Source of the DNA: an uncultured bacterium
GTDB lineage: Bacteria > Patescibacteriota > Minisyncoccia > Phycocordibacterales > UBA5272
Direction of reading: 5' to 3'
NCBI GenBank assembly: GCA_903834855.1
Contig: CAILKS010000022.1
Coordinates: 1 to 43,007, forward strand
DNA: 43,007 nt
Position numbers and translations under genes: made by a program. Position 1 is the first letter of the stretch, and the number at the start of each line of letters is the position of its first letter. Under the pieces are notes generated by a model. That model ran no database searches, was not told the DNA's origin, and was given only the letters and a program-made list of their open reading frames with translations. This document shows, one piece after another, positions 2,287-38,318 of the stretch.

Positions 2287-2646
2287 ATGACTGAAGAACG
2301 TATATATAACCTAGAGAAAAGAACTTTGGCTTTTGGGCAGAATATTGTAGCTCTCTGTAAGGGCTTTAAGAGTGAGCCTCTTACTAGACCAATGCTTATA
2401 CAAATAATAAGGTCTGGAACTAGTATCGGGGCTAATTATGTCGAATCTACTGGTGCAAGCTCAAAAAAGGACTTTGCTCACAAGATTTTTATTTGCAAAA
2501 AAGAAGCCCAAGAAACCAAATATTGGCTTGCTATTATAGGCTCCACCTTTGAAGAGCAAAACATCCAAGTAAAAAATCTTCAAAAAGAGTGCCAAGAACT
2601 AGTCCTCATTTTCAATAAAATTGCTAGTTCCTCACGTGCAGAATAG
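2287..2646 (+). CDS. Four-helix-bundle protein of the 23S rRNA intervening-sequence protein family (Avd-like fold)
   Basis: Motifs IIRSGTSIGANYVES ... SKKDF ... KEAQETKYWL are typical of PF05635/TIGR02436. Length is 119 aa. Confidence 0.85.
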   Translation: MTEERIYNLEKRTLAFGQNIVALCKGFKSEPLTRPMLIQIIRSGTSIGANYVESTGASSKKDFAHKIFICKKEAQETKYWLAIIGSTFEEQNIQVKNLQKECQELVLIFNKIASSSRAE

Positions 2647-2728: not shown

Positions 2729-5700
2729 ATGTTCATCCATCTCCGTAATCATACCCACTACTCCCTGCTCAAGGCCCTGCCAAAGGTGAAGGAACTTATT
2801 TCTGCTGCTAAAAATAATAAAATGGGATATGTTGCCATAACAGATTACAGTAACATGTACGGTACTATTGAATTTTTTTCAAAGTGTAAAAAGGAAAAAA
2901 TAAAACCAATAATTGGAGTTGAGTTCTCTCTTATTTTTAACGAAAGAACTTTCCAAACAATATTGATCGCTCGGACCTTAGAGGGGTACAAAAATTTAAT
3001 GAGAATAGTCTCGATTGTAAACGTAGATAATCCACTTAATCCAACCCTTAAAGAAGAGACTCTTGTAACTTACAAAAACGGCTTAACAGTTCTCTCTGGT
3101 GGTGTTAGTGGTGACATTAGTAATCTACTTGTAATAAATGAAAAAGATGCCGACTCACGACTTCTATTTTATAAAGAACATTTTGGTGATAATTTTTATC
3201 TAGAAATAAATCCACAAACTGGTATGGACCGTGGTGTTGAAATGCGCGATAAGACTATAGAGTATGCAAGAAAAACAAACACTCCCCTGGTGGCCACATT
3301 CAATACTCACTATATACATGATGCTGATAAAGCAGCTCATAAAACTCTTTACATGGTTCATGGAGATTTACATTCATCTGATGAATACAATCATCTGTTT
3401 CAAAAAGATTCATTTGCCTTTGTAGATACAGACACTGCTAAAAAAATATTTGCAGATACCCCTGACGCAATTTCAAATACTGTAAAAATTGCAGAAAGCT
3501 GCGAACTGGAAATCCCTCTTGGCGACTGGGTGTTTCCAAATATTGAACACAAGAAAAGTTACAATGAGGACTTAAGAGATCTAGCATACGAGGGTTTAGA
3601 AATTAGAAAAATGGAGTTAACTGATATTGTAAAAACTCGATTAGAGTATGAATTAAAAGTTATTGCAGATAAGGGTTATTCCCCTTATTTTTTGGTAGTT
3701 TATGACCTTTTACGATTTTCTCGAGAGAACGACATCCTCACAAACATTAGAGGTTCTGTTGCTGGTTCTTTGGTGACTTATCTTCTTAGAATTACAAAAT
3801 GCGATCCACTCGCATATAAACTTCCGTTTGAAAGATTCCTAAATCCTGAGAGACCTTCGGCACCGGACATCGATATGGATTATGCAGATACTCGTCGTGA
3901 TGAAGTTATTGATTATGCTCGTCGTAAATATGGAATAGATAATGTAGCTCAGATAGGAACATTCGGAACAATGATGGCACGTGGTGCTGTGAAAGATGTA
4001 GCTCGTGCAATGAAATATCCATACGTTGTTGGTGACCGTATTAGTAAATTAATTCCAATGCCAAAACAAGGATTCCCTGTGACTATAAAAGGTGCTCTAG
4101 AAGACATCCCAGAGCTTAAAGAATTGTATGACACAGACCGTGAGGTGCAAATAATTTTAGACATGGCACAAAAAGTTGAAGGATGTGCCAGACACATTTC
4201 CGTCCACGCTGCGGGAACAGTTATATCCCCTGCTCCACTTTGGGAATGGACACCTATACAAAAAGATCCAAAAGGTGGAAAAATAATTACTCAGTACGAT
4301 ATGTACACAATTGAAGATGCTGGACTGCTAAAGTTTGATTTTCTAGGAATTAGAAACTTAACCATATTGGGAGATGCGATTAAAATTGCAAAAGAAAATT
4401 ATAACATTGATGTAGATATAGAGGAGGTATCATTATCAGATGCAAAAACTTTTGAAATGTTATCTCGTGGCGAGACTATGGGATTATTCCAATTAAATGG
4501 TTCTGGTATGACAAGATTTTTGAAAGAACTAAAACCTAACGCTATCTTTGACATTAATGCCATGGTGGCCTTATATCGTCCTGGACCGCTAGAAATGATT
4601 CCTGAATACATAAGACGTAAACATGATCCATCACTCATCTCTTATCTTGACCCAAGACTAGAACAAATACTAGACCAATCTTTTGGAGTTATCGTCTACC
4701 AAGATGATGTTATGCTTATAGCCATTCATTTGGCTGGATATTCTTGGCTTGAGGCAGATAAATTACGTAAAGCTATGGGTAAAAAAATACCCGCAGAAAT
4801 GCAAGCGCAAAAAGAAAAACTATTAGCTGGATTCGTAGAGCATGGGCTGTCTGTAAAAAAGGGACAGAAGCTTTGGGAATTAATTGAGCCGTTTGCTGCA
4901 TATGGTTTTAACAAATGTTTAACTGGAGATACAAAAATTGCATCTGCAGAGACTGGCGAGATTCTAACAATAAGAGAAATATATTCCAATAATTTAAAAC
5001 CTAAATTATTAAGTTTGGGGAATGATGGCCTGCTTCAAAATAAAAAAATTACTGCAGTACTTGAAAATGGTATAAAAAATATTTATGAATTAAAAACTAG
5101 ATCTGGAAGAATAATTAGAGCAACGGGTAATCACCCTCTATTAACATTTAGTAAATGGAAAAATCTTGATGAAATTAAATCTGGTGAACGTATAGCCGTA
5201 CCCCGTAATTTATCGAGTCTAATCGGTAATGTAAAAGAAAAAGAAAAAGCTGCAATACTGGGATATTTAATATCAGAAGGTAATCTCTGCCACCCACATG
5301 GTATTTATTTCTATTCAACACAAGAAAATGAAATAAAAGATTTTATAAAAAATTGTAATAATTTCGAAAATTTTAAATATACATTAGATAAGAGTAAAGC
5401 TGCTACTTCTGTTTATTGTGGCCAAATAGACCAGAAAAAAGGAAATAATCTAAATAAGTGGGTTGAAAAACTAGGTCTAAAAAACAAAAAAGCTACAGAA
5501 AAAAATGTCCCCGATTGTGTCTTCAAATGGGACAAGGAAACTCTTTCTATTTTTATAGGAAAACTTTGGCAAGGTGATGGTTGTATCAGTATAAAAAATG
5601 AACAGGTATTTTATGCTACGAGTTCAAAAGTTCTAGCATATGACGTACAACATTTACTTTTAAGGTTTAGTATTTTATCTACAATTCATGAAAAGAAATT

Positions 5701-7225
5701 TAAATATAGAGGAGGAATAAAAATCGGATTTACTGTAGTAATTTCTCATAGAGAAAACTTACGTAAATTTAAAAGTACTATCGGTATGTATTTAATCGGT
5801 AAGAAAAAAGAAGATTTGAAAAAATTGCTCACGTTAACTGAAAATACTTTAGATATCTCTGCGAGAGGAACTAAGAATATTATACCAGCGGAAGTAATGA
5901 TACATATACGAAGGATAATGTTAGAAAAAAATGTCTCTGTTAAAAAAATATCTAAAGATACTGCTCTTTCGGAGAGATTATTCTCATATGATAAAAAGAA
6001 GACTGGCTATCAAAGAGCTGTAATAGAAAAGCTAGGAAAGTATTTAAAATCAAAGGAAATTTTACAAATCGCTAATAGTGATATTTATTGGGATGAGGTT
6101 GTTTCTATAAAAAAATCTGGTAAAGAAATGACTTATGACTTAACTATTCCACCTCATCATAACTTTGTTGCAAATGATATTATTGTTCACAATTCGCATG
6201 CTGCAAGCTATGGAAGAGTGGCGTACCAGACCGCTTATATGAAGGCAAACTTCCCTGTTGCATATATGACAGCAATCATGACTAACGAATCTGGTGATGT
6301 AGAGAAAATTGCTGAAATTGTTTCTGAATGTAAAAGAATGAATATAAAAGTTTTACCACCAAATGTAAATACTAGTGCAGGAGGGTTCTCCATCGTTCAA
6401 GAAGGAACAGAGAACGATGAATTTTCAATTTCTAATTTTCAATTTTCAAAAAATACAGAGACAAATGCAAACACAGATGCGGATGCGATTAGTAATAATA
6501 CAAGTAATGAAGAAATACTTTTCGGTTTGTATACAATTAAAAATCTTGGAGTCGATATATCAGATGCAATAATTGAAGAAAGAAACAAAAATGGAAAATA
6601 TAAATCTTTCGAAGATTTTATACTTCGTGTTACTCATAAAAATTTAAATAAAAAATCTCTAGAGGCATTAACTAAATGCGGAGCACTTGATGATTTAGTA
6701 GAACGTGGGGAAGTTTTAGCAAACTTAGAAAGTATTTTAGAATTTCATAAACATGTTGTAAAAGATAATGTGATGCAAGATAGTTTATTTGGAGGAATGG
6801 AGACTTCTTCTTTTGTTATGAAAAAAGCTCCCCCTGTTTCTCAAGAACAAAAACTTTCTTGGGAAAAAGATTTGCTTGGACTTTTCGTTTCTGGTTTTCC
6901 TCTTGACCCTTGGAAAGAAAAACTTGAAGCTCGAGGAATAGACATAACTAAAGTTCACCACGATACTCCTGATGGTAAAGAAGTTTCTCTGGGAGTCATA
7001 ATTGAAAATATAAAAATAACTATCACAAAAAAAGGTGACCAGATGGCTCTCGTCAAATTACGTGATTATAAAGGAACTATAGAAGTTGCTGTTTTTCCAG
7101 AAACTTACAAGAAATATAAATCACTACTTATAATAGATGTGCCACTTGTTGTTAGGGGGAAAGTATCGACTAGAAATGGTGAGAAGACTATAGCAATAGA
7201 TGAGGTTCGTAATTTACGACAGTAA
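2729..7225 (+). CDS. dnaE: DNA polymerase III alpha subunit (DnaE) interrupted by an intein
   Basis: N-terminal PHP motif (HLRNHTHYSLL), a GSVAGSLV-type palm, the FAAYGFNK|SHAASYGRVAYQTAYMKANFP fingers motif split by the intein, and a C-terminal OB-like region. Confidence 0.95.
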   Translation: MFIHLRNHTHYSLLKALPKVKELISAAKNNKMGYVAITDYSNMYGTIEFFSKCKKEKIKPIIGVEFSLIFNERTFQTILIARTLEGYKNLMRIVSIVNVDNPLNPTLKEETLVTYKNGLTVLSGGVSGDISNLLVINEKDADSRLLFYKEHFGDNFYLEINPQTGMDRGVEMRDKTIEYARKTNTPLVATFNTHYIHDADKAAHKTLYMVHGDLHSSDEYNHLFQKDSFAFVDTDTAKKIFADTPDAISNTVKIAESCELEIPLGDWVFPNIEHKKSYNEDLRDLAYEGLEIRKMELTDIVKTRLEYELKVIADKGYSPYFLVVYDLLRFSRENDILTNIRGSVAGSLVTYLLRITKCDPLAYKLPFERFLNPERPSAPDIDMDYADTRRDEVIDYARRKYGIDNVAQIGTFGTMMARGAVKDVARAMKYPYVVGDRISKLIPMPKQGFPVTIKGALEDIPELKELYDTDREVQIILDMAQKVEGCARHISVHAAGTVISPAPLWEWTPIQKDPKGGKIITQYDMYTIEDAGLLKFDFLGIRNLTILGDAIKIAKENYNIDVDIEEVSLSDAKTFEMLSRGETMGLFQLNGSGMTRFLKELKPNAIFDINAMVALYRPGPLEMIPEYIRRKHDPSLISYLDPRLEQILDQSFGVIVYQDDVMLIAIHLAGYSWLEADKLRKAMGKKIPAEMQAQKEKLLAGFVEHGLSVKKGQKLWELIEPFAAYGFNKCLTGDTKIASAETGEILTIREIYSNNLKPKLLSLGNDGLLQNKKITAVLENGIKNIYELKTRSGRIIRATGNHPLLTFSKWKNLDEIKSGERIAVPRNLSSLIGNVKEKEKAAILGYLISEGNLCHPHGIYFYSTQENEIKDFIKNCNNFENFKYTLDKSKAATSVYCGQIDQKKGNNLNKWVEKLGLKNKKATEKNVPDCVFKWDKETLSIFIGKLWQGDGCISIKNEQVFYATSSKVLAYDVQHLLLRFSILSTIHEKKFKYRGGIKIGFTVVISHRENLRKFKSTIGMYLIGKKKEDLKKLLTLTENTLDISARGTKNIIPAEVMIHIRRIMLEKNVSVKKISKDTALSERLFSYDKKKTGYQRAVIEKLGKYLKSKEILQIANSDIYWDEVVSIKKSGKEMTYDLTIPPHHNFVANDIIVHNSHAASYGRVAYQTAYMKANFPVAYMTAIMTNESGDVEKIAEIVSECKRMNIKVLPPNVNTSAGGFSIVQEGTENDEFSISNFQFSKNTETNANTDADAISNNTSNEEILFGLYTIKNLGVDISDAIIEERNKNGKYKSFEDFILRVTHKNLNKKSLEALTKCGALDDLVERGEVLANLESILEFHKHVVKDNVMQDSLFGGMETSSFVMKKAPPVSQEQKLSWEKDLLGLFVSGFPLDPWKEKLEARGIDITKVHHDTPDGKEVSLGVIIENIKITITKKGDQMALVKLRDYKGTIEVAVFPETYKKYKSLLIIDVPLVVRGKVSTRNGEKTIAIDEVRNLRQ
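4916..6193 (+). mobile_element. Intein (426 aa) with a LAGLIDADG homing-endonuclease domain, inserted in DnaE between ...YGFNK and SHAAS...
   Basis: It starts CLTGDTKI (block A), carries GNHPLL (block B) and two LAGLIDADG-like motifs (AAILGYLISEGNL and IFIGKLWQGDGCI), and ends NDIIVHN followed by a +1 Ser. The extein junction restores the conserved GFNKSHA motif. Confidence 0.85.
6422..6456 (+). repeat. Family-A heptad tract inside dnaE (TTTTCAA TTTCTAA TTTTCAA TTTTCAA AAAATAC)
   Basis: CAATTTTCAAAAAATACAGA (20 nt) is identical to the reverse complement of intergenic copy 22961-23006, and 19 of these nt recur in copy 7436-7474. It is translated as ...FSISNFQFSKNT... Confidence 0.7.
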
Positions 7226-7235
7226 ATTAGGGACT

Positions 7236-7480
7236 TCGTCTTAATTTTCAAGTATCAATTTTCAATTTTCAAGTAGATACAATCAGGGAACCAAAATTTC
7301 CAATTATCAATTTTCAATTTTAAAGTAAACATAATACGGAAACATGCATTTTTTGAAAATTTATAATTCTCTTGTTATTTATCGTATTTTTATTGCGTTT
7401 TTTGAAAATTGATAAACAAAATTATTTTGGTATTTCCTGTATTTTTTGAAAATTGAAAATTGGAAATTGAAAATTATTTT
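7236..7480. repeat. Cluster of family-A heptad tracts in both orientations (TTTTCAA-type at 7244-7274 and 7297-7323; TTGAAAA-type at 7349-7360, 7399-7413 and 7444-7474)
   Basis: Direct reading of the dnaE-secG spacer. Confidence 0.75.
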
Positions 7481-12920: not shown

Positions 12921-13613
12921 ATGAAAACTATACAAGTTAAAATTGATGAGGTAACTCGTCTCAATAAATTCTTAAGCGAACAAGGTATTGTCTCTAGAAG
13001 AAATGCAGATGAGCTTATAAAAAATAAACTAGTAACAATTAATGAGAAAGTTGCTGTGCTTGGCGACAAAGTAAAAACTGGTGACATTGTTTCATTTAAA
13101 AAAATAGAAACACCTCTTACCTATGCTCTCTACTATAAACCTCGTGGAGAAATTACAGGAAGGATTCCAAGTCTTCCTGGATGCGAACCAATCGGAAGAC
13201 TAGATAAAGAAAGTGAAGGTCTACTTCTTTATACAAATGATTACAGGGTTGTAGATGCTGTACTTCACCCAATACACGCACGAGAAAAAGAATATGAAGT
13301 ACAAGTACGTGAAAAGACAACACCTCGAGTTGTTACATTACTTAAGCGTGGTATAAAAACTCAAGAAGCTACTTATTCCCCTGTTAAAAGTGTTCAAATA
13401 TATGGAGAAGGACGCAGTATTCGTATTATTATTACCGAAGGAAAAAAACATGAGATTCGCAGAATGTTAAACGCTCTTAACTTAACAGTGCTATCTCTTA
13501 AGCGAGTTCGTATTATGTCTTTTGTATCTCACGGATTGAAAGCTGGTACACCACATATATTAAGTCCAAAACAAAAAGAAACTTTATTGAAAGACTGTGG
13601 AGTAGAGGGATAA
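12921..13613 (+). CDS. Pseudouridine synthase, RsuA/RluB family, with an S4 domain
   Basis: An S4-like N-terminus (RLNKFLSEQGIVSRRNADELI), the catalytic GRLDKESEGLLLYTND motif, and KEYEVQV and GKKHEIRRM. Confidence 0.85.
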   Translation: MKTIQVKIDEVTRLNKFLSEQGIVSRRNADELIKNKLVTINEKVAVLGDKVKTGDIVSFKKIETPLTYALYYKPRGEITGRIPSLPGCEPIGRLDKESEGLLLYTNDYRVVDAVLHPIHAREKEYEVQVREKTTPRVVTLLKRGIKTQEATYSPVKSVQIYGEGRSIRIIITEGKKHEIRRMLNALNLTVLSLKRVRIMSFVSHGLKAGTPHILSPKQKETLLKDCGVEG

Positions 13614-13719
13614 TATTCAATGAAACAATATTCAATAATTAATGAAGCATTCATATTGTATTATTAAATGTATATTATCTCTATTCTAATTATATATTGA
13701 GTATTGTTTCATTGAATAT
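13613..13719. repeat. 25-bp inverted repeat (1 mismatch) with a 57-nt spacer, immediately after the stop codon of the pseudouridine synthase gene
   Basis: ATATTCAATGAAACAATATTCAATA (13613-13637) pairs with TATTGAGTATTGTTTCATTGAATAT (13695-13719). Confidence 0.75.
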
Positions 13720-13799
13720 TTATTGCGTCTGTATCTTCGTGTCTGTTTAAATATTGAATATTAAAAAACATTGAATATTTTGAGTATTCTCAACATGTG

Positions 13800-14160
13800 A
13801 ATAACTCTCTTGTCTAGCCCTTGAGTATAACTTGTGGTTTGATACACTAATTAGTAGACAGTTGTTTCATTATCAGCTTTTAGTACCAGGAAAGAACATT
13901 AATAAGTTCTTGAAGTCTATGAGATGAGATTGGACTTATAAACCGATCTCGTCTATGCCGATAAAAAAGCAGATGCGGCTTCAAACAACTGGAAGTAACA
14001 TATTCTAAAGTTTGAAAAAGTTTTGGAAGAATTGCTAACAATAAAAACGGAAGCCTAAGAAGCAACCGCAACGCATCAAACAAAGACGTCGAATTTATTT
14101 AAAAAATAATTAAGACAAAACAGAAACCGCCATACTTACCAGAGGGGCGGTTTTTGTTTT
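13800..14160 (+). ncRNA. Candidate orphan transcript of unknown identity, ending in an intrinsic terminator
   Basis: No credible ORF on either strand, moderately raised GC, and it ends in the terminator at 14124-14160. The 5' end is not defined. Confidence 0.3.
14124..14160 (+). terminator. Intrinsic terminator (AAACCGCC-loop-GGCGGTTT followed by TTGTTTTTT)
   Basis: An 8-bp GC-containing stem followed by a T-tract on the plus strand. Confidence 0.6.
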
Positions 14161-14810
14161 TTATCCATATATTGCTCCATCTACTTCGCTATTAAAAATT
14201 TTTATTCCTGCGCCGTATATCTATATACGTCTTAGTCTTAAAAACTTTTAATAACTCGTATCTGAAACAATATCTGAATAAAAAATATAGTTGGTCTACT
14301 TTGTCGTGGGTCCCTGCCGACTTCGCAAGCGGTGCGGTAACTACGTCTCCTCGTTGGCCTTCCCGCGCCGCGTATTTGTCGCTGTAAAAAAGTAACTACG
14401 AGTTTTGTTTTTATCCATGCCTTGTATCTATCAGTTTATAAAAAACAAAGAATTAGATTTTGCCTAAGACGCATCTGCTTCGTTAGAAAGAAATTTTATT
14501 TTGGCTAGCGAGGAGTTAAATAAAAAAGTAATCTTTTATATTTAATCCGAGCGACGACAAAAAACTCTTTCGTCAACGTACTACTTGTACGTCTCCTCAT
14601 AAAATTTCTTTCTGCCTTGCATCTATCGTCTTATGCAAACAAAAGTTTGGATTTAATCGCAAAAATTTCCTGCGCCTCGTCTCTGTATCCTTATAAAAAA
14701 GAAACTGTGTGAGCCTCGTATCTATTGTCTTATACAAACAAAGGTTTGGATTTAATTACAAAAAATTTCTGCGCCTTGCATCCGTCGTCTTATGCCAACA
14801 AAAAAGTTAT
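14161..14810. repeat. Degenerate tandem array, about 9 copies of a ~35-nt unit (consensus approx. CTGCGCCTYGYATCTATCGTCTTATRCAAACAAAAAG), including a ~100-bp tandem duplication (14611-14710 vs 14711-14810)
   Basis: Units start near 14208, 14255, 14362, 14417, 14461, 14611, 14668, 14711 and 14768. The interspersed word GTTTGGATTTAATYRCAAAAA occurs twice. Confidence 0.7.
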
Positions 14811-14889
14811 CTAAAAATATAATAAAAAATAGCTATGATAAAAGGTAACCCGAGTATTAGTGAAATTAATTTTTTATCTGGTTCAGTCA

Positions 14890-14925
14890 TTTTTTTGAAA
14901 ATTGATAATTGATAATTGATAATTA
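14890..14925 (+). repeat. Family-A heptad tract (TTTTTTGAAAATTGATAATTGATAATTGATAATTA)
   Basis: Direct reading. It abuts the 3' end of the minus-strand Ddl-like gene. Confidence 0.75.
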
Positions 14926-14940
14926 CTCATTTATCCTAAA

Positions 14941-15876
14941 TTAATGATTATTTATAAATGAGTGCACGTATTGCCCTAAATTTACCCCTGTTGTTGCTAA
15001 TGATTGCAAGAAACGTCCGTCCTTTGAAAGCGACGGCTTAACATCGACATTAATGACCATATAGCCGTCTTTGTATGGGATCATGTCAATTAACGCATGA
15101 CCTGAAAGGGCAAGCGCTTCATAGGCAGATTCTGCCGCTTTACGTATAGCCTCATTCTCTTCTTCCCCTGCTTTAAATACTGCTCTCATTGGATGATCTT
15201 TCCTCGGTATAGATTTTAACGGAGCAAAAGTTTCCACAGCAAGTGGAGTGTACAGTTTATTTCCTCTAAATTTTGGAAGTACGGCAATGGATAAAGTTCT
15301 TGTGGGTTTATATGTAAATATATGAACATCTATATTATCATTATGATAATCAGCTAAAACTTTTTCTAAGTCTGTATATTGACGAACTAAAACTGATTCA
15401 TGTTCTCTATCTTTTTTAAGAGGCCTTACCATAAGTGGCGTGTGGAAAGTATTCCATACTGTTCTAAAAGTTTCTTTTGGTGTTTCTGTGTTTGCTCTTA
15501 CAACTAATGTTTTTGGAGTTGGTAATCCATGCTGACGAAACAGCCTATACATATCTTCTCTGTCTAACGTTATAGAATCATCATGAGAAAGAAGTAGCGG
15601 TATCCACATTTTTTTAGCAAGCTCTCTATGTGGTGCTTCTATATCTTGTGTTGTGTCGACAACATAATCAGCAATTGTAAAAACATAATGAGCATCTGTT
15701 GGTCTTCCTTTCATCGTCCAATTACCATCAACATCAATTAAAATATCGAGTGGCTCATATCCAATTCCCGTTAAAGAACGCAAAATATCTTGACCGTCTA
15801 AGAGAGACTGATTTGAATTAATCGTACCTCCACGAATGACTGCAATAATGTATGGAATAGCCGCTGTTGAATTCAT
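14941..15876 (-). CDS. D-alanine--D-alanine ligase-like ATP-grasp protein (divergent)
   Basis: The Ddl-like order of blocks is IIAVIRGGTINSNQSL..., LDREDMYRLFRQHGLPTP, PLMVRPLKK..., ALIDMIPYKDGYMVINVDVKPS. The start is moved to the ATG at 15876 (MNSTAAIPY) because TGCTATACT lies 6 nt upstream. Confidence 0.55.
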   Translation of the reverse strand: MNSTAAIPYIIAVIRGGTINSNQSLLDGQDILRSLTGIGYEPLDILIDVDGNWTMKGRPTDAHYVFTIADYVVDTTQDIEAPHRELAKKMWIPLLLSHDDSITLDREDMYRLFRQHGLPTPKTLVVRANTETPKETFRTVWNTFHTPLMVRPLKKDREHESVLVRQYTDLEKVLADYHNDNIDVHIFTYKPTRTLSIAVLPKFRGNKLYTPLAVETFAPLKSIPRKDHPMRAVFKAGEEENEAIRKAAESAYEALALSGHALIDMIPYKDGYMVINVDVKPSLSKDGRFLQSLATTGVNLGQYVHSFINNH

Positions 15877-15882
15877 GATTAT

Positions 15883-15891
15883 AGTATAGCA
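15883..15891 (-). promoter_or_regulatory. Extended -10 (TGCTATACT), 6 nt upstream of the Ddl-like ATG
   Basis: The minus strand reads TGCTATACT-ataatc-ATG. Confidence 0.45.
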
Positions 15892-15989
15892 AAAATAGGT
15901 TTTAGGTTGTAGGTGATAGGTTGTAGAAACTGAAAAATACACAGACTTGCTAATTTAATATACATTTATTAAAATAAAGTTCTCTACGT

Positions 15990-16747: not shown

Positions 16748-16860
16748 ATTTTATTAATTTTTAATTTCTAATTTTATTTTATTTTAACACGGACAACTAT
16801 CTTGTTCAAAGAAACTTTATTTATTTTCTATCATATTATTTTAATTTTTAAGCTTTCAGT

Positions 16861-16965
16861 TTTGGATGAATTTCGAGGCGTCGAGTGTGCAAGCATGGAA
16901 ACGTACTATGGCGTACGTTGAGATGCGAGCACACGATGACAACAAAGAAATTCGCCAAAAATGGA
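16861..16965. repeat. Family-B palindromic element B1 (~105 bp), centre ACGTAC-tatggc-GTACGT, ends TTTGGATGAATTTC / GAAATTCGCCAAA
   Basis: The two arms were compared by eye. Confidence 0.65.
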
Positions 16966-16978
16966 AGCTATATTATTT

Positions 16979-17095
16979 TCTAAAGAAATTGGATGCAGTA
17001 CGAGGAGCCCAGGAATTTTTCGAGGAGACGTACTAACGTGTACGTTGACGAGAAAAATTACGTAGCGACAAAGTAATGCGCCAATTTCTTTAGAA
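16979..17095. repeat. Family-B palindromic element B2 (117 bp) with perfect 15-bp terminal inverted repeats (TTCTAAAGAAATTGG / CCAATTTCTTTAGAA) and centre GAGGAGACGTAC-taacgt-GTACGTTGACGAG
   Basis: Direct reading. It abuts the nrdB stop codon at 17098. Confidence 0.75.
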
Positions 17096-21163: not shown

Positions 21164-21284
21164 ACACGTTTCATTTTCATTACATTTTTAATATATTCAG
21201 TATATATAAAATGACTCCAAAAGGCACTTTTCATGCCATTTTTTAGTGTCAAGAGTTACCCTTGACATAGTGTAAATATTTGGT

Positions 21285-22499
21285 TTAGATACGCTTATCT
21301 CGTAAGCTTTTGTGGTAACCAATAGCAAATCTATGTGCCTCCCCATTACCCAAAAATATTTCCTTTGTATGGTAATCCACATATTCTTTCCTACCTAAGA
21401 CCTCTTTTGGCTTGTGACGATCATCCTTAACCACAGATACACAAGGTATAGAAATACCCAATATCGCTAATGTTTTTTCTGCAGTTTGTTTATGAGCAAC
21501 ACCACCATCGATAACAATTAAATCAGGGAAGCGCCATTCTTTATGAGAAAATCTTCTTGTTAAAATTTCTCGTAGACCTGCATAATCATCATTTATGTTT
21601 TCAGGTAATTTAAATTTTCTATATTCATCTGTTACTTTTTCTTTTCCTTCAATAACTGTCATAACACCTACGCGAGAGGTTCCAGAAATGTGTGCAACAT
21701 CATAACTCTCAATACGAAAATTATTATCTTTAAATGAAGTTACATTATCATCTTTAATTAAATTAACATCTTTAATATGATCAATCGCAAAAAGTGTATT
21801 ACGCACCTTAGCAGCTTTTTCAAATAAATGTTTCTTTGCATAATCATTCATTTCTTTTTCTAAAGATTTCTTTATGTCTGTTTTTTTACCTTCAAAGAAT
21901 TTTCTAATATTAGAGATATTCTTTTTATATTCTGTTTCAGATATCAAACCCACACACACCCCAGGACAAAGTTTTATTTGAGCATTAAAACACATTTTAT
22001 TTTGATTAAGCTCACACTTATCACGATATGGAAACATTTTACGAATTATTTTCATCGCCTCTTTTAATTGTGTAAGAGAAGCAAATGGCCCGTAAACAGC
22101 GAGCGTTTCTTTTTTTGTAAATCGTTTTTCAAAATCGCGAATTCTAAGAGTTAAAACTCTTGGAAACTTTTCTTTAGTTATAACTACACAAGTAAAACTT
22201 TTATCATCTTTTTCTTTTGTGTTATATGTTGGGTTATTATCTTTAATCAATTTACTCTCAAGTAACAAAGCCTCAAGCACACTATCTGTTTCTTGGAAGG
22301 TCACATGGTGAGCGGCCGCAATCATTCCAACTAATCTTACTCCTCTTGTTTTTATTAAGTCATTAGAAAAGTAACTCTTCACTCTGTCAGATAGCGAAGT
22401 AGCTTTTCCTATATAAAGAATGTTATTTTCACTATCTCTAAAGAAATAAACCCCTGGATTATCAGGAAGTTTGGCTGTGGATAGCTCTTGCTTTTTCAT
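21285..22499 (-). CDS. uvrC: Excinuclease ABC subunit C, short form (404 aa, no C-terminal HhH2 domain)
   Basis: GIY-YIG (PGVYFFRDSENNILYIGKATSLSDRVKSYF), a UVR-like helix pair (...KEMNDYAKKHLFEKAAKVRN), and an RNase H-like domain (IESYDVAHISG ... IVIDGG). Confidence 0.85.
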   Translation of the reverse strand: MKKQELSTAKLPDNPGVYFFRDSENNILYIGKATSLSDRVKSYFSNDLIKTRGVRLVGMIAAAHHVTFQETDSVLEALLLESKLIKDNNPTYNTKEKDDKSFTCVVITKEKFPRVLTLRIRDFEKRFTKKETLAVYGPFASLTQLKEAMKIIRKMFPYRDKCELNQNKMCFNAQIKLCPGVCVGLISETEYKKNISNIRKFFEGKKTDIKKSLEKEMNDYAKKHLFEKAAKVRNTLFAIDHIKDVNLIKDDNVTSFKDNNFRIESYDVAHISGTSRVGVMTVIEGKEKVTDEYRKFKLPENINDDYAGLREILTRRFSHKEWRFPDLIVIDGGVAHKQTAEKTLAILGISIPCVSVVKDDRHKPKEVLGRKEYVDYHTKEIFLGNGEAHRFAIGYHKSLRDKRI

Positions 22500-22965: not shown

Positions 22966-23006
22966 TGTATTTTTTGAAAATTGATAATTGATAATTGATA
23001 ATTAAT
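22966..23006 (+). repeat. Family-A heptad tract (CTGTATTTTTTGAAAATTGATAATTGATAATTGATAATTAA)
   Basis: Direct reading. It lies just beyond the uvrA stop. Confidence 0.8.
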
Positions 23007-34372: not shown

Positions 34373-34439
34373 AAAAAACTAATAAAATCACTTCATCTAC
34401 TTTTTGTCCACGACATGAATCTGTTGATTCAGCTACGGA

Positions 34440-34515
34440 ATTTTTCTCAGTCGTCGTACTAGATGTACGCCTTCTTTAAAAAATTCCTAGGCTCCTCGTA
34501 TCTGAAGCAATTTTA
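34440..34515. repeat. Family-B repeat copy (GTCGTCGTAC-tagat-GTACGCCTTC ... AAAAAATTCCTAGGCTCCTCGTATCTGAAGC)
   Basis: It aligns by eye with 14570-14625 and with the reverse complement of 16985-17051. Confidence 0.6.
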
Positions 34516-34521
34516 TTAATC

Positions 34522-38099: not shown

Positions 38100-38318
38100 T
38101 TTAGTAAACGTCAGCCTAGTCAGAAATTAGATGAGATACGCCGTTGATTTTTGAAAAATATTTTAGCTTGTACGTTAAAAACTACGTCAGCCGAGCCAAA
38201 ATTTGGATGGAATCCGAAGTTGTTTTGCAAAAAAAGTTTGGAGATGTACTGACTTATACATTGAAACACTTTTTTTGTAAAACGACGAGGAGTACGCCAA
38301 ATAGTGGCTCGGTGTTTC
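38100..38318. repeat. Family-B mosaic repeat copies (ATTTGGATGGAATCCG, GTACGTTAAAAACTACGTCAGCCGAG, ACGACGAGGAGTACGCC)
   Basis: It shares words with 14500-14660 and 16861-17095. The supplied ORFs here (38120..38440 and others) are spurious. Confidence 0.55.

Follow-up and report, generated by a model that had tools for sequence, protein, structure and literature searches.

Introduction

Genomes of the CPR/Patescibacteria are among the most compact known, and to our knowledge almost nothing has been described of their non-coding RNAs or of the ends of their transcription units. Several described systems resemble parts of the locus analyzed here. REP/BIME, ERIC (IRU) and Neisseria Correia sequences are multi-copy imperfect palindromes of ~35–150 nt that lie in transcribed intergenic DNA after genes, also in tandem, and effects on mRNA stability or termination have been proposed for them. 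Bidirectional intrinsic terminators are found at gene ends, preferentially between convergent genes, as hairpins with an A-tract on one side and a U-tract on the other. Integron attC sites form imperfect hairpins of 60–140 nt from the preceding stop codon, in which structure counts for more than sequence and the functional bottom strand is antisense to the ORF. The hairpin element described below shares these traits with all three. Dual-function RNAs such as SgrS/SgrT and RNAIII/hld combine a small ORF and RNA-level constraints on one transcript, and their ORF has been lost in some lineages; the RNA unit of our locus is similar in that the RNA part alone survives in one clade, with promoter and terminator intact.

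Replication sites and guide arrays have hallmarks of their own. The XerCD dif site is 28 bp long, with two 11-bp arms around a 6-bp center. At an oriC or iteron platform, DnaA boxes or identical direct repeats are clustered, usually near dnaA/dnaN between divergent genes. A TIGR-Tas array is made of regular ~36-nt units (edge repeat, spacer A, loop repeat, spacer B) and adjoins a Nop-domain tas gene (PMC12045711).

The window, that is, the whole stretch of 43,007 nt that was analyzed, comes from a genome of the Patescibacteria (Paceibacteria/"Nomurabacteria"). It contains a spacer with three conserved features, in which convergent transcription units meet. These 1.3 kb hold a conserved RNA gene, an array of hairpin elements and a 27-codon gene, and they are probably not a replication terminus.

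Results

Layout of the spacer

Plus-strand ORFs end at 13613 and minus-strand ORFs begin at 14941, which confirms the strand switch of the first-pass annotation. The genes around the spacer are rsuA-like, MFS, RNase J, ddl-like, FKBP and RNR, and the convergent rsuA/ddl junction is kept in relatives. The spacer had been called gene-free; this does not hold, as the conserved RNA gene (~13855–14168, + strand) and a conserved 27-aa ORF (14807–14890, − strand) lie within it. Six-frame translation of the spacer gives no long ORF, and a tRNA/tmRNA scan found nothing. Rfam 15 at the gathering threshold has zero matches in the whole window; relaxing the cut-off to E up to 10 adds nothing but generic terminator look-alikes such as ohsC and BSnc120, and those at 14117–14160 score far under the gathering scores. 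A generic scan for sigma-70 promoters and terminators was uninformative. In order, the spacer comprises an AT-rich hairpin after rsuA, a promoter-to-terminator RNA unit, the hairpin-element array and the 27-aa ORF. The features, including two outside the spacer, are:

13612–13720, no strand: AT-rich inverted repeat with 32-nt arms, adjoining the rsuA-like stop codon and made of the word AATATTCAAT
13796–13804, − strand: DnaA-box-like site TTATTCACA (consensus TTATNCACA), 16 nt upstream of the −35 hexamer
13821–13848, + strand: promoter-like site, −35 TTGAGT, 16-nt spacer, −10 TACACT, from conservation in ~30 genomes
13855–14168, + strand: structured non-coding RNA from a UPF0339/YegP (DUF1508) gene, 5′ end placed from the promoter
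13948–13989, + strand: remnant of the ancestral coding block VDADKKADAASKT, where tblastn aligns residues 57–70
14117–14160, + strand: predicted terminator hairpin with T-run and invariant 15-nt loop CAUACUUACCAGAGG, from hairpin search and compensatory changes
14163–14281, + strand (E orientation, CATCTGCTTYG): first full hairpin-element copy, covariance model R1 97 bits, E = 2.6e-26
14296–14400, + strand: divergent GC-rich hairpin-element copy, with CGCAAGCGGTGCGGTAACTACGTCTC and flanking loops common to positions 7269–7380 of the related locus L006
14458–14642, + strand: hairpin-element copy with a ~75-nt insertion, R1 59.4 bits, E = 9e-14
14614–14793, + strand: 99-nt tandem duplication of 3′-half fragments of the element (Tandem Repeats Finder, 1.8 copies, 80% match)
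14807–14890, − strand: 27-aa ORF MTEPDKKLISLILGLPFIIAIFYYIFR, from translation, last gene of the ddl-like operon
14895–14924, no strand: TTGATAA tandem tract, 4.3 copies
16851–17093, − strand: tandem pair of hairpin elements directly after the nrdB stop, outside the spacer, R1 63 and 37.6 bits
34379–34521, + strand: hairpin element between two convergent genes, outside the spacer, R1 58–62 bits

The inverted repeat reported near 13613–13719 is present with longer arms (13612–13643 and 13689–13720, 32 nt, 91% complementary), and its RNA fold has an energy of −36.1 kcal/mol (z = −6.25). The word repeats noticed beside it are likewise real: in a scan of the window AATATTCAAT/ATTGAATATT occurs five times, within 13612–13780 only, and three of these copies, besides those that make up the inverted repeat, lie at 13711–13780. 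Relatives have a matching layout after rsuA built from other words (AATTTTCAAT in L006, TTTTTAATTT in L007). The inverted repeat may serve as the terminator of rsuA or belong to the region upstream of the RNA promoter. At the other end of the spacer, the repeat tract of the first-pass annotation is the TTGATAA run; the same word recurs in other intergenic regions of the genome, and relatives have different words at this position. The 27-aa ORF, which probably encodes a small membrane protein, lies directly downstream of the ddl-like gene in six of the related loci and in others, and its changes among relatives are for the most part synonymous or conservative.

The RNA gene

In about 16 relatives the RNA unit is an intact ORF of 99–107 aa, which matches Pfam DUF1508 (PF07411) at 33.7 bits against a cut-off of 22 and also matches UPF0339 proteins of the PDB (2k7i at E = 5e-8; the family also includes 3bid). 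The window copy is no longer protein-coding: it has no start codon, lacks ~170 nt and contains stop codons, and residues 57–70 alone align. The ORF is gutted in 8–10 other genomes of the comparison as well; a metagenome scan added two new ORF-less loci and no more. The nucleotides of the block VDADKKADAASKT are frozen even where the gene is intact, and across VDADKKADAASKTT-K at least 95% of the 16 intact genes have the identical codon.

The unit has a mean identity of 89% among 4 genomes, with invariant blocks of 40–60 nt, and its minimum free energy is −82.7 kcal/mol (z = −6.2); covariation is found in one hairpin and in the terminator. The promoter hexamers TTGAGT and TACACT are near-invariant in ~30 genomes and the sequence between them is variable; many relatives have TG-N-TACACT. 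The DnaA-box-like site TTATTCACA keeps a fixed position in 29 of 31 relatives and varies at the N position only. Such conservation suggests that DnaA may bind there and control the RNA gene. The orphan terminated transcript that had been proposed is borne out by the hairpin at 14117–14160, whose stem carries compensatory changes in four relatives and is followed by a T-run. With its G+C-containing stem and U-tract at the end of the unit, it is a predicted intrinsic terminator; it fits the description of a bidirectional one fully and could work in both directions. A reading of the conserved block as a tmRNA tag or micro-ORF (MPIKKQMRLQ...) was dropped because a 1-nt indel between relatives shifts the frame.

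The ~310-nt structured RNA is the surviving scaffold of a UPF0339/YegP-family gene: the frame has been lost in the clade of the window, and purifying selection acts on the RNA. The scaffold consists of the 5′ UTR, two frozen coding blocks, the 3′ UTR and the terminator with its invariant loop. We infer that the RNA now functions as a non-coding RNA. It differs from SgrS/SgrT and RNAIII/hld in that the ancestral protein is of the UPF0339/YegP type with a Lys-rich tail.

A hairpin element in the array

The spacer array consists of three to four copies of one hairpin element plus fragments, and the window holds at least 5 copies in total. The first full copy (14163–14281) folds at −25 kcal/mol on its E strand and at −46 kcal/mol on the better-folding opposite strand, here the minus strand, which we call F; orthologous copies with compensatory stem changes occur in four relatives. 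The divergent copy at 14296–14400 lies below the R1 threshold, and its counterpart at L006 7269–7380 scores 31.9 bits. In the copy at 14458–14642, stem A is formed by AGAAAGAAATTTTAT and ATAAAATTTCTTTCT, whose 15-nt arms are perfectly complementary. The 100-bp tandem duplication of the first-pass annotation was recovered with a period of 99, and its fragments match the 3′ half of the L007 copy. The array had been described as degenerate ~35-nt units with TTGCAT-N10-ATGCAA palindromes. Units of 31–35 nt are present, but the true unit is the ~120–150-nt hairpin element, of which they are flanks and half-copies; the palindromes are not separate units and belong to its 3′ loop and outer stem. Spacing of the repeat units is irregular (39–195 nt), with no 36-nt periodicity. 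On the minus strand the array region has a folding energy of −180 kcal/mol (z = −8.0), versus −144 kcal/mol (z = −4.5) on the plus strand. A similarity of the module flank GCCTAAGACGCATC to GCCTAAGAAGC...CGCATC in the 3′ UTR of the RNA was judged too weak to use.

Covariance model R1 finds ~95 copies in 0.8 Mb of related loci. Some of these lie in MAGs of Desulfobulbales and Bdellovibrionota, and within a MAG copies are spread over several contigs; a scan of viral contigs gave 3 matches. Rfam returns nothing on typical copies, and literature searches on DUF1508, CPR hairpins and CPR repeats turned up neither the element nor the RNA unit; the element is apparently undescribed. Its pairing is strongly supported by covariation. 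Compensatory change is seen in 28 of 32 pairs when the alignment is fitted to R1 and in 24 of 32 in an independent MAFFT/RNAalifold alignment. Alignment cells are paired at 90.5% versus 64.5% in shuffles, and the covariation score is 0.616 versus 0.170 in shuffles and 0.08–0.14 in slid controls. Compensation well beyond the controls makes the element a structured RNA or single-strand hairpin family. RNAalifold did not recover the fold from MAFFT-aligned copies downstream of nrdB, because the alignment is poor in the weak orientation.

The element is tied to gene ends. In 77 of 85 cases (44/47 + 33/38) it lies directly 3′ of a gene on the E strand, with a gap near 0, and its orientation bias relative to the upstream gene is 91%. 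The stop codon falls within the outer stem, which fits the last codons of each gene. Many copies are operon-internal, for instance between L10 and the next gene or between hlyB and hlyD; convergent junctions are over-represented among the contexts (27 of 74). Within the window, orientation tracks the local gene and not the replichore: the copies after nrdB, a minus-strand gene, are on the minus strand, and those after plus-strand genes are on the plus strand. Orthologous genes are followed by the element in different genomes: nrdB in 8, RNase Y in five MAGs from two phyla, SSB in 3 and L10 in 3. In CPR bacteria the stem sequences of copies diverge within one genome and pairing and loop motifs are kept. 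Desulfobulbales copies are ~90% identical over their whole length and look like a recent repeat spread, which speaks against a functional reading.

Strand asymmetry

In 88 of 91 copies (49/50 + 39/41) the more stable fold is that of the F strand, by a margin of 11–13 kcal/mol. When the two arms are aligned without regard to strand, the E strand shows 70 isolated mismatches of the A·C type versus 11 of G·U (p = 1e-11), and the F strand reads G·U 70 and G·A 59. The asymmetry is weaker in the inner stems (A·C 14 versus G·U 5, p = 0.06). The two minimum-free-energy folds contain G·U pairs in equal number, a count that was made on the union of the folds and is circular. U-rich tracts after the hairpin are no better on the antisense than on the sense strand, with 6/8 T in only ~40% of copies. 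At many loci a canonical GC-rich terminator lies just past the element, sometimes at <12 nt; antisense transcripts would then be stopped there beforehand, and there is no room for an F-strand promoter. A search for antisense (F) promoters gave no consistent motif, and several loci have no room for one. Part of the F-strand advantage is due to purine-rich loops, and these could be no more than the complement of pyrimidine-rich sense loops that bind protein.

Discussion

Convergence of gene blocks was first taken as a sign that the spacer is a replication terminus with a dif/Ter region. The blocks do converge at a junction conserved in relatives, and cumulative GC skew peaks at ~13.5–14 kb. However, third-codon GC skew, read on the plus strand over the 43 kb, shows no replichore switch there. 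It is −0.37 for the minus-strand genes right of the spacer, −0.06 for the plus-strand genes on the right and −0.02 for the left plus-strand block, where a mirror image would give about +0.37. Since the left block equals the plus-strand genes on the right, it resembles lagging-strand genes of one replichore, and the cumulative peak reflects gene orientation. In a dif scan with E. coli, B. subtilis and generic consensus sequences, which may not fit the host lineage, the best matches equaled shuffled maxima and none lay in the spacer. The repeats, moreover, are explained by a gene-end element present elsewhere in the window, and we regard a terminus as very improbable. Even less credence can be given to a DNA platform for protein binding (iterons, origin or partition site) or to a CRISPR/TIGR-type guide array. 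The many degenerate repeats and the DnaA-box-like sequences at 13796 and 14161 would suit the former, and TIGR arrays do occur in CPR genomes (PMC12045711). Yet DnaA boxes are not enriched (15 with ≤1 mismatch in the window versus 15.05 expected), the genes on either side are convergent, and covariation in the repeats follows base pairs, which argues against the iteron-like platform of the first-pass annotation. The irregular spacing likewise does not suit guide units, and no cas or Nop-domain tas gene is found among the neighbors. A set of small RNAs, also suggested at first, comes closest of the three alternatives; one conserved structured RNA gene and a hairpin array dominate the region. 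Nor is the spacer junk by the refuting condition set in the first-pass annotation, because it is strongly conserved in relatives. For the unit at 13855–14168 one may still think of a functionless, decaying DUF1508 pseudogene: the ORF no longer exists, and three related loci show broken forms of an intermediate stage. Against this, the 8–10 ORF-less genomes are 0.80–0.92 identical over the unit where rsuA third codon positions, a proxy for neutral sites, are 0.42–0.65 identical. Promoter, DnaA-box-like site, terminator pairing and loop are all kept, and the blocks that remain are exactly those with frozen synonymous sites in intact genes. Neutral decay is thus hardly probable.

As to the hairpin elements, they could be palindromic repeats of the REP, ERIC or MITE kind, selfish or neutral, whose copies and debris accumulate at a permissive convergent junction. 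The element is dispersed in many copies, as such repeats are (at least 5 in 43 kb), with tandem pairs, half-copies, the 99-nt duplication and the 75-nt insertion; module order is shuffled between close relatives, several phyla carry it, and one Desulfobulbales-type MAG has near-identical copies. Unlike REP, ERIC and Correia elements, however, CPR copies differ in their stems with full compensation while keeping internal-loop motifs, occupy orthologous positions across genera, are strongly biased in orientation, adapt their outer stem to the gene, and bear a structural signature on the antisense strand. No RAYT or transposase was noticed next to copies, whose neighbors are partly annotated, and terminal inverted repeats and target-site duplications were not identified. 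Selfish or neutral repeats are therefore an unlikely explanation. The element also departs from bidirectional terminators, being 5–10 times longer, dispersed and often operon-internal, with conserved internal loops (tandem GA, antisense) and mediocre U-tracts. Nor does it agree with attC: RYYYAAC/GTTRRRY core sites are absent from the alignments, no integrase or cassette array was seen, and the genes before it are core housekeeping genes scattered round the genome. A more serious competitor, though still a doubtful one, is a function in sense mRNA, in the 3′ UTR or between cistrons. There the element would protect transcripts from 3′ exonucleases, provide a processing site for RNase III/Y or serve as a large terminator; a protein such as Rho or one with a KH domain would recognize its pyrimidine-rich loops (YCAUCU twice, CCUC), and the antisense signature would be a by-product. 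Sense RNA is certainly made, since 77 of 85 copies follow a stop codon on the strand of the gene, and many of these are operon-internal or precede a canonical terminator. The stop codon within the outer stem and the copies after RNase Y genes also agree with this. Nevertheless, in the sense strand the non-canonical positions are overwhelmingly A·C and U·C, the most destabilizing ones, where the antisense strand reads G·U and G·A and is the more stable in nearly all copies. Mutation bias should run the opposite way, because sense strands are G-rich at third codon positions.

The account that combines the array, the RNA gene and the 27-aa ORF, with the element acting on transcripts as a polar barrier, is as a whole the best explanation in our judgment, at a probability of roughly 0.55. 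By this account the element would act on transcripts at gene ends and not on replication. In sense mRNA it would be weak, since A·C and U·C mismatches interrupt it and its loops are rich in pyrimidines; in antisense RNA it would be strong through G·U pairs, tandem G·A and purine-rich loops. The preferred mechanism is a polar barrier or terminator: sense transcription and translation would pass, and transcripts entering a gene from its 3′ end would be stopped or folded up. In the spacer, the array, with the two-way terminator at 14117–14160 at its end, would shield the RNA gene from read-through of the convergent ddl/27-aa operon.

A bolder proposal would see in the element a new class of strand-asymmetric gene-end insulator or terminator, polar in action and directed at antisense and converging transcripts, at ~100 copies per genome as extrapolated from 5 copies in 43 kb, with a DnaA-box-controlled, DUF1508-derived RNA as its partner in trans. 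As part of this joint claim, the insulator may be common to Paceibacteria and to some Desulfobulbales and Bdellovibrionota. Within the RNA lies AAGCAGAUG, which has the sequence of the antisense-sense loop of the element and is the complement of the CAUCUGCUU loop that many 3′ UTRs expose. We consider the proposal a speculative one. If true, RNA and element together would tie replication status to the fate of many housekeeping mRNAs.

Our study presents the spacer as a clear natural case of an mRNA turned non-coding RNA, in which the constraints on the RNA are already visible within the intact gene of relatives. It also brings to light a hairpin family at the 3′ ends of housekeeping genes that is widespread, covaries strongly and is missing from Rfam; unexpectedly, its structural signature lies on the antisense strand. 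Covariance model R1 can be used to annotate hundreds of these elements in CPR genomes and to separate them from supposed "junk" or "terminus" sequences. If the strand asymmetry is functional, the family would represent a general route to directional transcription barriers.

The spacer and its setting

The window has a G+C content of 33%, and the closest relatives of its proteins are encoded by Patescibacteria MAGs labelled Nomurabacteria, Paceibacterota or "Saccharibacteria". The same convergent gene pair encloses the spacer in the closest relatives, with 1.0–1.6 kb between the genes. The flanks and two small features between them are:

12921–13613 (+), RsuA/RluB-type pseudouridine synthase gene (rsuA), left flank
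13796–13804 (−), DnaA-box-like site TTATNCACA, 16 nt upstream of a −35 hexamer
14807–14890 (−), 27-aa ORF, kept in relatives with mostly synonymous or conservative changes
14941–15942 (−), D-Ala-D-Ala-ligase-like ATP-grasp gene (ddl-like), right flank

All the sequence features reported by the first-pass annotation were recovered, among them the inverted repeat after rsuA (32-nt arms at 13612–13643 and 13689–13720; fold z = −6.25), the AATATTCAAT words, which are confined to 13612–13780, and a tandem duplication of 99 nt (14614–14793). Its candidate for a terminated transcript is also present: a T-run comes directly after the hairpin at 14117–14160. The spacer is not gene-free as had been stated, for it contains a conserved RNA unit and the 27-aa ORF. 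Nor may it be by far the largest non-coding stretch, since long ORFs are also lacking across another large stretch, positions 1–1360. That region is AT-rich (24–33% G+C), with just two short ORFs and a single perfect DnaA box at 1151–1159 (−). In two relatives, L008 (7680–8180) and L109 (equivalent position), the hairpin module is separated from the 27-aa ORF by an extra ORF of ~165 aa. Genes have been gained and lost in the spacer.

The proposal of a replication terminus is not borne out. Third-codon GC skew is −0.02 in the left plus-strand block, which is no mirror image of the minus-strand genes (−0.37), although this test spans 43 kb only. Plus-strand genes embedded in the right block give −0.06, and the skew flip at the spacer is therefore attributable to gene orientation. 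No dif-like site rose above chance. DnaA boxes were not enriched, and the origin reading is likewise unsupported. A TIGR or CRISPR-type array was rejected, as the regular units and the associated genes that it needs are both absent.

A conserved RNA unit descended from a DUF1508 mRNA

Alignment of the spacers of four genomes revealed a block of ~370 nt that averages 89% identity and includes invariant stretches of 40–60 nt. The block starts with TTGAGT, 16 nt and TACACT, and ends with the hairpin at 14117–14160, whose stem pairing persists through compensatory changes and whose 15-nt loop is invariant. Searches for the RNA unit with nhmmer and with 19-mers across 185,579 species genomes recovered it in ~30 MAGs, where the two hexamers are near-invariant and the intervening 16 nt variable. 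The DnaA-box-like site is kept at a fixed distance upstream of this promoter in 29 of 31 genomes, varying at the N position only, which suggests control of the RNA/DUF1508 unit by DnaA. The unit folds far better than its shuffles (MFE −82.7 kcal/mol, z = −6.2). RNAalifold supports one covarying internal hairpin and the terminator and, together with direct reading of the sequence, points to the invariant long-range helices GAUGCG/CGCAUC, GAAGUCU/AGAC-GUC and CAGUUGUUU/AAACAACUG.

About 16 of the ~30 MAGs carry an intact ORF of 99–107 aa (MSKTTILEVYQDKKGxYRFRLL...LVDADKKADAASKTTGKQ, then a Lys-rich tail), which matches Pfam DUF1508 and solved UPF0339 proteins. The ORF is destroyed in the window and in 8–9 relatives: it lacks an ATG, has lost ~170 nt and contains stop codons. 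By tblastn, the unit of the window matched residues 57–70 only. Identity among the ORF-less RNAs is nevertheless 80–92%, compared with 42–65% at rsuA third codon positions in the same genome pairs. Both UTRs survive, together with the ILEVY and VDADKKADAASKTTGK codons, and it is at exactly these segments that synonymous sites are frozen in the intact genes. The constraint on the RNA is therefore older than the loss of the reading frame. We conclude that the unit probably functions as a non-coding RNA and that it derives from an mRNA.

A dispersed hairpin element

Downstream of the RNA-unit terminator the relatives carry recognisable modules of ~120 nt. Their stems differ between genomes and are fully compensated (TATTAAAAATTTTTA/TAAAAACTTTTAATA in the window, GTGTAAAGTTTTTA/TAAAAACTTTACAC in L008, GCAGGAAAATTTTT/AAAAATTTTCCTGC in L011). 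Across the species-genome collection, a gapped pattern built from the modules gave 106 matches, some of them on other contigs of the genomes closest to the window; about half of the matches examined were true copies. In the E orientation (that with CATCTGCTTYG; F is its reverse complement), the consensus comprises, in order, an outer stem that is long and variable, the loop (U)CAUCUGCUUYGUUG, a stem with AAAUUUUU, an apical portion that includes GUAC-N4-5-GUAC, closure of the stem by AAAAAUUU, the loop GCCUCGCAUCU and the outer stem again. In an RNAalifold analysis of 37 copies, 24 of the 32 pairs show compensatory changes. Among 82 model-aligned copies, both sides change in 28 of 32 pairs and paired cells amount to 90.5%, compared with 64.5% in shuffles; the element has a covariation score of 0.62, whereas shuffles reach 0.17 and slid controls ~0.1. 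The covariance model places the element in the window at:

14163–14281 (+), 97 bits
14458–14642 (+), 59 bits, with a 75-nt insert
16978–17093 and 16851–16968 (−), tandem pair directly after nrdB
34379–34521 (+), between convergent genes, 3′ end abutting the malic-enzyme stop codon

A weak candidate lies at 38192–38309 (−). The ~35-nt units of the first-pass annotation are present as degenerate units of ~31 nt, but the true repeat unit is the hairpin element; these units and the 99-nt duplication are its 3′-half fragments and flanks.

About 95 copies occur across 0.8 Mb of related loci. Some lie on clearly non-CPR contigs, for example one that encodes a type I secretion operon and another, from Desulfocapsaceae, with a bona fide 6S RNA. 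The MAGs concerned belong to Desulfobulbales/Desulfocapsaceae, other Pseudomonadota and Bdellovibrionota (L122, L129, L131, L147, L150, L157, L172, L203, L117); there the element sits, for example, between hlyB- and hlyD-like genes. Copies in these MAGs are ~90% identical, and horizontal spread is one possible account of the cross-phylum distribution.

Gene ends and strand asymmetry

Of 47 pattern-derived copies, 44 lie immediately at the end of an E-strand gene, as do 33 of 38 copies left out of model building, usually with the stop codon inside the outer stem. The genes concerned have housekeeping roles (RNase Y, RpoC, EF-Tu, SSB, L5, L6, L10, L11, NusG, SecY, EF-P, DnaJ, FtsZ, GAPDH, NrdB), plus a tmRNA-like gene. 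RNase Y directly precedes the element in two distant phyla, in CPR (L116, L134, L159, L191) and in Desulfocapsaceae (L129). At L124 (~4780) and L206 (~7640) the gene before the element encodes an RNA whose 3′ end, ...GCCTCCACCA, is tmRNA- or tRNA-like; the element is therefore not tied to translation stops. Many copies are operon-internal, 4–60 nt from the next start codon, and others precede a canonical GC-rich terminator. By these positions, E-sense RNA is certainly transcribed.

Paradoxically, it is the F strand that folds better, by 11–13 kcal/mol in 88 of 91 copies. When the two arms were aligned in a strand-neutral manner, the isolated mismatches on the E strand were A·C in 70 cases versus G·U in 11 (p = 1e-11), and U·C in 59; on the F strand these positions become 70 G·U and 59 G·A. 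Read on F, the loop bordering the outer stem is a tandem G·A pair and the remaining loops are purine-rich. G·U pairs, tandem G·A and purine-rich loops are usual hallmarks of folded RNA. Mutation bias predicts the opposite asymmetry. Orientation within the window tracks the local gene and not the replichore, which speaks against single-stranded DNA during replication as the cause. No F-strand promoter was found, and several loci have no room for one. The U-tracts beside the element are equally mediocre in both directions.

The preferred reading is a polar barrier. The element would be deliberately asymmetric, weak in the sense transcript, which must pass through, and strong in transcripts entering the gene from its 3′ end. 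The excess of convergent junctions among its contexts (27/74) fits this reading. The main rival would be a protein-binding 3′-UTR element that acts in the sense RNA.

In the spacer, the order on the plus strand is rsuA, AT-rich hairpin, DnaA-box-like site, promoter, RNA, terminator and E-oriented array; on the minus strand it is ddl-like gene, TTGATAA tract, 27-aa ORF, F-oriented array and the RNA-unit terminator from the other side. The array occupies exactly the place at which transcripts of the ddl operon would, but for it, enter the RNA unit in antisense. Its folding energy is −180 kcal/mol (z = −8.0) for the minus strand and −144 kcal/mol (z = −4.5) for the plus strand. Within the RNA unit, 13966–13974 (+) reads AAGCAGATG, identical to the element's F-sense loop CAACRAAGCAGATGA and complementary to its E-sense loop; this could be chance (roughly 1%, a post-hoc estimate) or reflect a shared partner.

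Other features of the window

2287–2646 (+), 23S rRNA intervening-sequence protein gene (PF05635), flanked by TTGATAA tracts
2729–7225 (+), DnaE (Pol III alpha) gene, containing an intein with a LAGLIDADG homing-endonuclease domain
21197–22499 (−), UvrC-like ORF, short (404 aa) and overlapped at its 3′ end by a small ORF

The UvrC-like ORF may be split or truncated. The TTGATAA tract noted earlier in the spacer (14895–14924) is present, and further intergenic tandem tracts of the heptamer lie at 2051–2240, 2675, 7304–7408, 22980–23000, 25751 and 28977. Different words take the equivalent place in relatives (TAAAGTCC four times in L007, AAATTGGAAATTG in L109), and the words are lineage-specific.

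Relation to known elements

Neither the RNA unit nor the hairpin family is present in Rfam 15, where no family matches the hairpin element, and no description of either was found in the literature. Conceptually the RNA unit resembles dual-function RNAs with a lost ORF. The hairpin element recalls REP, ERIC or Correia repeats as well as bidirectional terminators, and its geometry is like that of integron attC sites, but it differs from all of them in the features tested. Its strand asymmetry could set it beyond the known kinds that it resembles.
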